Shown one piece after another: positions 12,359-13,190 of a stretch of 14,098 nt of DNA (position 1 is its first letter; every line of letters begins with the position of its first letter). The notes under the pieces are model-generated. The model ran no database searches and had not been told where the DNA came from. It was given only the letters and a program-made list of their open reading frames with translations. The position numbers were made by a program, and so were the translations under genes. The stretch comes from a virus. Location: UHGV virus genome UHGV-2186863; one strand, given 5' to 3'.

Positions 12359-13190
12359 CCAGTCTCCCCGAATTACTCATTTCATGCAGCGATGACACGA
12401 TGTCACTGACTGGCGTAATAACCCCCCGGCGCTGGCTGGTCAGAATATCGGTTTCCGCTCTGAGTTTATCTCTGGCGGCGTTGATTCTTTCCCGGTCAGC
12501 ACGAAGTTTTGGTGCTGTTTCCGCCAGAACGTCCAGCGTCAGCAATGAGCGTTCAATTGACTCGATACGGGCAATATTCCGGTCAAGAGCCTGTTCGGCT
12601 TTAAGTATTTTGTCGTACAGGGCAACACGGGTTTCCACGTCAGCCGCCTCTTTCAGGTCGGCGAACATTTTTTTCAGTGTTCCTGTTACTGAAAGTGCGC
12701 GGGCACGGGTGAACACCAGTTCATCGAACAGCACCATATCGGACGCATCATCCATGAGGTTATCTGCCTCAAGATACTTCGCATATCCACGGTGTCTCAC
12801 GGCGTGGGTGTTACGGTCGCTAAACCGGGCAACGGGGTGAGGATTACCCGATCTGCTGTTGCGTTTCGTTTCTGCCGAATTTGCGCAGTTTTTTGCGCAT
12901 TTTTCATCACTGCCATCATCGCCGTAAGACTCGTCATTACTGGACTCGTCATCAGCTCCATGCGCATTTTTTTGTGCGCTTTTTTGAGTGTCAATTTGCG
13001 CACTTTTTTGCGCATTTTTCTGCGCACTTTCCTCTGTATTTTTGGGGGAGTTTTTGCGCAGTTTTATGTACCGACGAGCCGTGCCATAGCAGATATTGTT
13101 CTGTCGACACCAGTCCTGAAGTTTTATGCCAGTTCTGGCATGTTCGCGTCGGAATACCTGCTCCAGTTTTTTCCAGTCCAGCTTTGCCAT
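12339..13190 (-). CDS. terminase small subunit-like DNA-binding protein (N-terminal HTH-like, acidic low-complexity linker, C-terminal coiled coil)
   Basis: 283-aa ORF directly upstream of the large terminase; N-terminus MAKLDWKKLEQVFRREHARTGIKLQDWCRQNNICYGTARRYIKLRK is HTH-like. Called by position and architecture; weak ribosome-binding site. Confidence 0.6.
   Translation of the reverse strand: MAKLDWKKLEQVFRREHARTGIKLQDWCRQNNICYGTARRYIKLRKNSPKNTEESAQKNAQKSAQIDTQKSAQKNAHGADDESSNDESYGDDGSDEKCAKNCANSAETKRNSRSGNPHPVARFSDRNTHAVRHRGYAKYLEADNLMDDASDMVLFDELVFTRARALSVTGTLKKMFADLKEAADVETRVALYDKILKAEQALDRNIARIESIERSLLTLDVLAETAPKLRADRERINAARDKLRAETDILTSQRRGVITPVSDIVSSLHEMSNSGRLDDIPEE
12882..13060. repeat. 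cluster of seven palindromic TGCGCA hexamers (plus one GTGCGC variant) in T-rich flanks, several at 12-bp spacing
   Basis: TGCGCA starts at 12882, 12894, 12961, 12997, 13009, 13021 and 13055; variant at 12974; typical unit TTTGCGCAnTTTT. The hexamer falls in three codon phases of the terS frame (encoding CA, S/N-AQ and LRK). Confidence 0.8.

Follow-up and report, generated by a model that had tools for sequence, protein, structure and literature searches.

A TGCGCA hexamer array inside the small-terminase gene of a 933W-like prophage as a candidate for the TerS-recognition part of a P1-like pac site

Why should the gene of a small terminase subunit carry seven copies of one palindromic hexamer, TGCGCA, within 179 bp? 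The question is raised by UHGV-2186863, a stretch of viral DNA of 14,098 bp (hereafter the window, meaning the whole stretch that was analyzed), in which all of the listed genes lie on the minus strand and the hexamers are located in the small-terminase gene terS (13190..12339). The original prediction, made from the letters of the window, had proposed that the hexamers form either a packaging initiation (pac) site or another protein-binding array. We found this to be supported as far as sequence comparison reaches, both by the conservation of the hexamers in homologues and by a probable remote homology of the TerS N-terminus to that of PacA of phage P1, and we consider it likely that the array represents the TerS-recognition part of a P1-like pac site.

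A motif count located TGCGCA at 12882, 12894, 12961, 12997, 13009, 13021 and 13055, together with a GTGCGC variant at 12974, exactly as had been predicted. These copies occupy nt 131-309 of terS, directly after the part of the gene coding for a helix-turn-helix (HTH) domain (residues 1-45), and only three other TGCGCA are found in the window (8695, 11079 and 11825). The array is divided into two clusters. Cluster I (12961..13060) contains the copies at 13055, 13021, 13009, 12997 and 12961 and the shifted variant GTGCGC, with A-tract spacers and a 12-bp spacing for three of the copies, and cluster II (12882..12899) contains the copies at 12894 and 12882. They are separated by a hexamer-free spacer of 61 bp (12900..12960), which codes for the acidic stretch GADDESSNDESYGDDGSDE. 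The hexamers had been described as having a nearly constant flanking context and a frequent spacing of 12 bp. This held for the five of the seven copies that are embedded in TTTGCGCAnTTTT and for three adjacent pairs of copies that are 12 bp apart, but the copies at 12961 (CATGCGCAT) and 13021 (TCTGCGCAC) deviate from the common context. Intrinsic DNA curvature had also been predicted, from phased T tracts, and the 12-bp phasing of the copies does not fit the 10.5-bp helical repeat that is required for planar bending.

When read off the coding strand, the hexamers fall into three codon phases, in agreement with the earlier claim: TGC-GCA (Cys-Ala) at 12882 and 12894, xxT-GCG-CAx (Ser/Asn-Ala-Gln/His) at 12961, 12997, 13009 and 13021, and cTG-CGC-Aaa (Leu-Arg-Lys) at 13055, a copy that falls on the conserved KLRK with which helix 3 ends. 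Such a density is not expected by chance. When the window was simulated 1000 times with a first-order Markov model, the highest number of TGCGCA per 179 bp was 4 in one case and 3 or fewer in all others, as compared with the observed 7; likewise, 5000 simulations with the local composition of the 179 bp never yielded more than 4. In the complete genome (62 kb) of Escherichia phage PhiR12_3, the array is unique, with 7 copies in 174 bp, and the 25 further TGCGCA are scattered, with at most two per 200-bp stretch outside terS.

The terS loci used for comparison were taken from IMG/VR, phage records and assemblies (L001-L167) and reduced to 99 non-redundant genes. The top hexamer within gene nt 120-330 was present in at least 4 copies in 99/99 genes and in at least 6 copies in 58/99, whereas only 2.7% of 1308 control windows from the same loci reached 4 copies and none reached 6. 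In these relatives, the arrays hold 4-9 short repeats and are always found at this position of terS. The kind of repeat changes with the HTH domain, which an AlphaFold2 model of TerS predicts as a confident three-helix bundle (residues 1-45, 13056..13190, minus strand); helix 3 (residues 35-41, YGTARRY), bearing the variable ARRY residues, is the putative recognition helix. Genes with ARRY or ARRH in this helix (73 genes) contain a median of 6 TGCGCA. Those with AKRY (8 genes, from Yersinia, Pectobacterium and others) contain no TGCGCA and instead have 4-9 copies of TGCGAA/TTCGCA, often as TGCGAATTCGCA, and those with ARTR or ARTQ (16 genes, including the true 933W/Stx (Shiga toxin) class and a Salmonella prophage) contain 4-5 (C/T)GATCA at an exact spacing of 12 bp. 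Two Salmonella-type genes have the same TerS body joined to other HTH domains: one, with an unrelated N-terminal HTH, carries GGTACGAAA three times and GTACCTCAAAAA twice, and the second, with another unrelated HTH, carries TCCGTCC three times followed by the inverted GGACGGA. In phages of Klebsiella, E. coli and Yersinia, the ARRY module is also found ahead of a complete TerS of the Pfam Terminase_2 family, and there TGCGCA again occurs in three phases (T-A-Q, K-L-R and K-C-A), and the Terminase_2 proteins of F116 and Bcep22 have neither the module nor the array.

At least five natural repeat types were thus seen, namely TGCGCA, TGCGAA, YGATCA, GGTACGAAA and TCCGTCC. These data raise the possibility of a portable packaging-specificity cassette, common to P1 PacA, 933W-like TerS and a Terminase_2 subgroup, in which an HTH of about 45 residues is combined with its own target repeats in the adjacent linker-coding DNA; we regard the chances for and against this proposal as about even. 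Since the HTH and its site lie within about 300 bp, they would move together as a cassette, and such joint travel would explain why the HTH-plus-array module is found on unrelated TerS bodies.

Several further features of the relatives were noticed. In the terS genes of true Stx phages (L016-L055, gene nt ~135-190), the 4-5 CGATCA are arranged as tandem ATCGATCATGAA coding for IDHE/IDHK/TDHE, and the Salmonella prophage gene L164 has (T/C)GATCA five times at gene nt ~140-200. A GATC Dam site is part of every (C/T)GATCA copy, and P1 pac uses this same hexamer; by analogy, packaging of Stx phages may possibly be controlled by methylation as in P1. The terS products L082, L083 and L084 of the Klebsiella, E. 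coli and Yersinia phages (334-364 aa) combine a PacA-like HTH module, a hexamer array and a complete Terminase_2 domain. Their Terminase_2 domain holds a zinc-ribbon-like CxxC...CPxC insertion, giving two candidate DNA-binding domains per TerS.

The original prediction had also drawn an analogy to P1 pac, and we found this analogy to be stronger than claimed, as it includes a probable remote homology of the HTH domains and hexamers at the same place in the gene. The first 43 residues of P1 PacA align with residues 6-48 of TerS (hhalign E=1.7e-4, probability 50%). In profile comparisons, TerS of the window matched the PacA family phrog_1711 (E=2.7e-4), PacA matched phrog_370 (E=1.9e-4) and L082 matched phrog_1711 (E=2.4e-5), suggesting a distant common origin of the TerS HTH and the N-terminus of PacA. 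The P1 pac hexamers have been defined experimentally as the packaging site and form two clusters around the cleavage site (PMC10028697). According to the annotated P1 genome, pacA contains four TGATCA at nt 194-233 and three more hexamers at nt 324-350, with an IHF (integration host factor) site at nt 256-268 and mapped cuts at nt 276-285. In both systems, therefore, the array lies inside the small-subunit gene just after the N-terminal HTH (pacA nt 194-350 and terS nt 131-309), and consists of about seven palindromic hexamers in two clusters, namely four, a spacer of ~90 bp and three in P1, and five plus one variant, a spacer of 61 bp and two in the window. In both, the hexamers occur in several codon phases and are kept while the linker peptide diverges, and the (C/T)GATCA hexamer of P1 is also used by the sister classes of the window gene (933W and Salmonella). 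The PacA of Cronobacter phage JK004 is 70% identical to that of P1, with an almost unchanged HTH and an entirely different linker peptide, and its gene retains TGATCA/CGATCA in both clusters. Since JK004 keeps the hexamers over a changed peptide, a proven pac site displays the same evolutionary signature that is used here for the window.

There are also clear differences from P1. The TGCGCA of the window does not contain GATC, which excludes control by Dam methylation. P1 has an IHF site between its two clusters, whereas no match to WATCAANNNNTTR with one or no mismatch was found at 12851-13100 of the window. TerS has 283 aa as compared with 397 aa for PacA, with no detectable similarity beyond the N-terminal ~45 residues. 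The array is thus best classed among the P1-type hexamer-array pac sites, as a variant of new specificity that is independent of Dam, lacks an IHF site and goes with a different terminase body.

Whether the hexamers are maintained for the sake of DNA or of protein can be judged from related terS genes, in which we found them to be kept where the amino acids vary. The linker-coding region of the 73 ARR(Y/H) genes contains 427 TGCGCA, of which 318 are in the phase xxT-GCG-CAx, 74 in NTG-CGC-Axx and 35 in TGC-GCA. The residue ahead of Ala ranges over 11 amino acids (T, S, P, A, N, V, D, I, R, G or Y), all encoded by NNT codons, and the phase-1 copies read V/L/M-R-x (NTG-CGC-A), all with NTG codons. 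The Ala preceding Gln/His is encoded by GCG in 313/352 cases (89%), as compared with 24% of the Ala codons elsewhere in terS, and the third base ahead of that Ala is T in 326/352 (93%). In each of three clades, conservation was higher in the hexamer columns than in the remaining columns of the linker (0.89 vs 0.76, p=8e-5; 0.98 vs 0.945, p=0.01; 0.82 vs 0.66, p=9e-4). Even in Aeromonas prophages, at 40% protein identity, 5-8 TGCGCA are kept at spacings of 9/14/10/9/9 bp, with one copy frame-shifted and coding for S-E-V-R-K. These comparisons indicate that the hexamers are conserved as DNA and not as protein. It could be argued that they are a by-product of a low-complexity (S/N)AQK-like linker repeat that arose by replication slippage, since four copies do sit in an in-frame 12-bp (4-codon) tandem, SAQK-NAQK-SAQI-DTQK-SAQK-NAH, a disordered linker tolerates repeats, and the copy number differs among close relatives (283, 279 and 271 aa). 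We consider this highly unlikely: the residues vary freely over the hexamers while the synonymous sites stay fixed, and the peptide-repeat explanation is therefore rejected, being largely refuted by the codon analysis. Moreover, the three frames code for unrelated peptides (C-A, L/V/M-R-x and x-A-Q), the spacings in other clades are irregular, and the hexamer is retained on unrelated TerS bodies. The earlier claim that the DNA motif rather than a peptide repeat is conserved accordingly stands, with the qualification that the array is in part a repeat at the peptide level as well. An equally slim chance is given to the view that repeat and HTH co-vary merely as neighbors within one recombination block, the repeats having another function or none. 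The domain and the array do lie within 300 bp, the mosaic breakpoints are located downstream of the array, and the downstream body and two leftover TGCGCA are common to the 933W-class genes and the class of the window. However, such a block gives no account of why every lineage has an array, even those with unrelated HTH domains, nor of why each array has one shared motif across codon phases and frozen synonymous sites.

Granting that the DNA is conserved, the array might bind TerS or another protein for regulation, either through autoregulation of the terminase by a roadblock or through a host nucleoid protein. This we hold to be improbable, although a site of this kind would likewise be expected to be conserved as DNA and to co-vary with the HTH of TerS, and TerS of SPP1 bound at pac has been reported also to repress its own synthesis (PMC6316719). 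On the antisense strand, pairs of hexamers together with T-tracts resemble weak terminators, of which 6 were found as compared with 1.3 expected. However, the Aeromonas and Terminase_2 clades retain the hexamers but have no such T-tracts, and the array is located within the coding region, at a depth of 130-310 nt, and not at a promoter. A promoter search in the array yielded only one weak promoter-like match, as expected by chance, and binding by a host factor would give no reason for the repeat type to follow the HTH of the phage itself. As the array is deep in the coding region and its counterpart in P1 is experimentally a packaging site (PMC10028697), a regulatory site is possible but less likely than a packaging site. 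The terminator-like hairpins themselves, at 12882-13050 on the plus strand (antisense to terS), might terminate antisense transcripts, or may have come about simply as a by-product of the array. Finally, the palindromic UGCGCA units could pair in the terS mRNA and control its translation or stability, in accordance with a folding energy of the sense-strand RNA of -58.1 kcal/mol, as compared with -43.3 kcal/mol for shuffled sequences (z = -3.6). We give this hardly any credence, as such an energy follows automatically from repeated palindromes, and the other classes use non-palindromic direct repeats (TTCGCA five times, GGTACGAAA three times and TCCGTCC three times) that are unable to pair mutually. 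In addition, an Rfam search gave no match, no compensatory changes between paired hexamers were seen in the homologues, where the copies stay identical, and the co-variation with a DNA-binding HTH domain points to DNA.

Several observations weigh against a TerS-binding pac array or against the cassette. All of the evidence for the pac reading is drawn from comparing sequences, and the homology to PacA extends over only the ~43 residues mentioned above, at an hhalign probability of ~50%. In a BLAST comparison, TerL of the window showed no similarity to P1 PacB, and the IHF-like site is lacking, as described. Four copies of the array coincide with the in-frame (S/N)AQK repeat of the peptide. In one SAQ unit, synonymous changes have removed the exact hexamer, leaving AGCGCAC at 12974 with the core shifted by one base. 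The copy at 13055 is the least certain member and may owe its presence to the peptide, because the GATC-class gene L164 also has a TGCGCA at the KLRK position. Besides this copy of L164, the 933W-class genes, whose main array is CGATCA, keep two TGCGCA downstream of it, corresponding to the pair of cluster II. The independent switches of domain and repeat are few, about five, and as domain and array are adjacent, linkage could explain part of the co-variation. A universal helix code is ruled out, since P1 pairs an ARRY helix with TGATCA; other residues must therefore contribute to the specificity. The distant homologue L081 (Vibrio phage 252E42.2, terS-like gene 1159-2097, 25% identity) is extended at its N-terminus and shows no obvious array after the HTH, and the cassette rule may thus not be valid for the most divergent members.

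The two leftover TGCGCA of the 933W-class genes (L016-L055, codons 78 and 86) differ in their fate. The upstream copy has been lost synonymously in two lineages (TGTGCA and TGCGCC) and the downstream copy is always intact, which hints that the constraint is relaxed on the upstream copy. The decay of these leftovers was set aside as evidence, because two synonymous-loss events are too few for a conclusion.

Other packaging systems provide further points of comparison. The pac site of P22 lies inside terS and is a single asymmetric sequence of 22 bp (PMC9611059), and that of SPP1 overlaps the sequence coding for the DNA-binding domain of TerS (PMC6316719). P22 and Sf6 are headful phages with a P22-type portal and with pac inside terS; the window has the same type of portal and would share the other two features. 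The Sf6 site, as Leavitt et al. 2013 (Virology 440:117) are said to have described, lies within the DNA coding for the TerS DNA-binding domain, an arrangement that reportedly favors horizontal exchange. P22 differs from the window in having one asymmetric, non-repeated site in place of a palindromic hexamer array, and the TerS of P22 and Sf6 are unrelated in sequence to that of the window, with no common Pfam or PHROG family. A P22-type pac, i.e., a single asymmetric site of ~22 bp, was accordingly rejected for the window, which has a repeat array and a TerS unrelated to P22 gp3. The SPP1 pac (pacL-pacC-pacR, bound by G1P) and the R-sites of lambda cosB (bound by gpNu1) are similar to what is proposed for the array in having several contact sites for a TerS HTH flanking the cut, but differ in sequence, repeat length and protein family. 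Moreover, lambda is a cos phage, and unlike in SPP1, the putative sites of the window are located beyond the domain, in the DNA that codes for the linker. 933W is reported to have terminal redundancy and to carry out generalized transduction at high efficiency, both of which would be expected of a pac phage (PMC3752737), and the 933W-type TerL has been classed as headful (PMC7317114). In the literature that we searched, no paper defined the pac site of 933W-like/Stx phages or mentioned these hexamers, and nothing relevant was found on TGCGCA with terminase, on PhageTerm results for Stx phages, or on PacA with 933W.

If the array is the TerS-recognition part of pac, the domain structure of TerS suggests how it might act. 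The AlphaFold2 model predicts that the HTH is followed by a disordered linker (residues 46-131, 12798..13055, minus strand; pLDDT <50), in whose coding DNA the array is embedded and whose coding stretch is the least conserved part of terS, and by a long helical hairpin at residues 145-252. TerS would thus present an N-terminal HTH on a long flexible linker joined to a helical oligomerization body, and the linker-coding DNA would carry, in two clusters, 7-8 copies of the hexamer that the HTH recognizes. One TerS oligomer may use several of its HTH domains to bind hexamers whose spacing, 12 bp in the window and 9-10 bp in Aeromonas, is close to one turn of the helix. The bound TerS would then mark phage concatemer DNA, and recruit and position TerL for the first cut, which by analogy with P1 is predicted to fall probably within or close to the spacer of 61 bp (12900-12960), and headful packaging would run from this cut. 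We infer from these comparisons the binding of the hexamers by TerS, the start of packaging at the array, the location of the cut and the direction of packaging.

Reviews describe the recognition of pac by ring-shaped TerS as unresolved (PMC9611059). The cassette, if true, would provide a naturally occurring set of matched protein-DNA pairs with which to address this problem, and would make packaging specificity readable from sequence and the cross-packaging of prophages, satellites and plasmids predictable. Many short, clearly bounded and co-varying sites make an unusually tractable test case. 933W-like phages carry Shiga toxin genes and transduce efficiently, and in the searched literature their pac site is not defined. 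A defined array would allow one to predict and engineer what these phages package, to construct pac-deleted helper phages or pac-bearing phagemids, as has been done for P1, and to test Dam control of packaging by means of the GATC-type arrays of true Stx phages. It would also help to interpret transduction and satellite mobilization in E. coli, Salmonella, Klebsiella, Yersinia and Aeromonas.

The window belongs to a 933W-like lambdoid prophage, which shares 99% identity with Escherichia phage PhiR12_3 and ~90% with many Stx-converting phages, and the alignments of most relatives to the window are split in two pieces that omit the repeat region of terS. The terS open reading frame (283 aa) matches phrog_370 ('terminase small subunit', E=1e-116) over its full length (residues 1-283) and is followed by terL and a P22-type portal gene, which together identify it as a small terminase. 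Pfam gave no significant match for terS or its N-terminal domain, with HTH families appearing only below the threshold, and a Protein Data Bank (PDB) sequence search with a profile of the N-terminal domain gave nothing meaningful. Upstream of terS lies Rz (13959..13492, minus strand), and a predicted hairpin upstream of terS folds no better than shuffled sequence. In three Salmonella-type relatives (L164, L166 and L167), a conserved non-coding element of ~60 nt (GATGGCGYTACGTGAAATCTGA...CACCAGATTTT, with a short hairpin) was noticed ~60-120 nt upstream of terS, at locus position ~1380-1450; the window lacks this element, for which an Rfam search gave no match.

Directly downstream of terS is terL, coding for the large terminase subunit (12358..10652, minus strand, 568 aa; phrog_2 and phrog_24361), the presumed partner enzyme that would cut and translocate the DNA. 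The two genes overlap by 20 nt at 12339-12358 (terL ATG at 12358, terS stop codon ending at 12339), which is typical of translational coupling between terminase subunits. The portal gene follows (10652..8508, minus strand, 714 aa; Pfam P22_portal, E=4e-129), and a capsid gene lies downstream of it on the same strand. Two runs of N, at 833-907 (75 bases) and 1358-1418 (61 bases), are located at the tail-gene end of the window, and open reading frame calls across both are unreliable. Within terL, the isolated TGCGCA at 11825-11830 has an A/T-rich context (AAATTTGCGCAAAATA) as in the copies of the array, and could be a chance match or a stray contact site for TerS.
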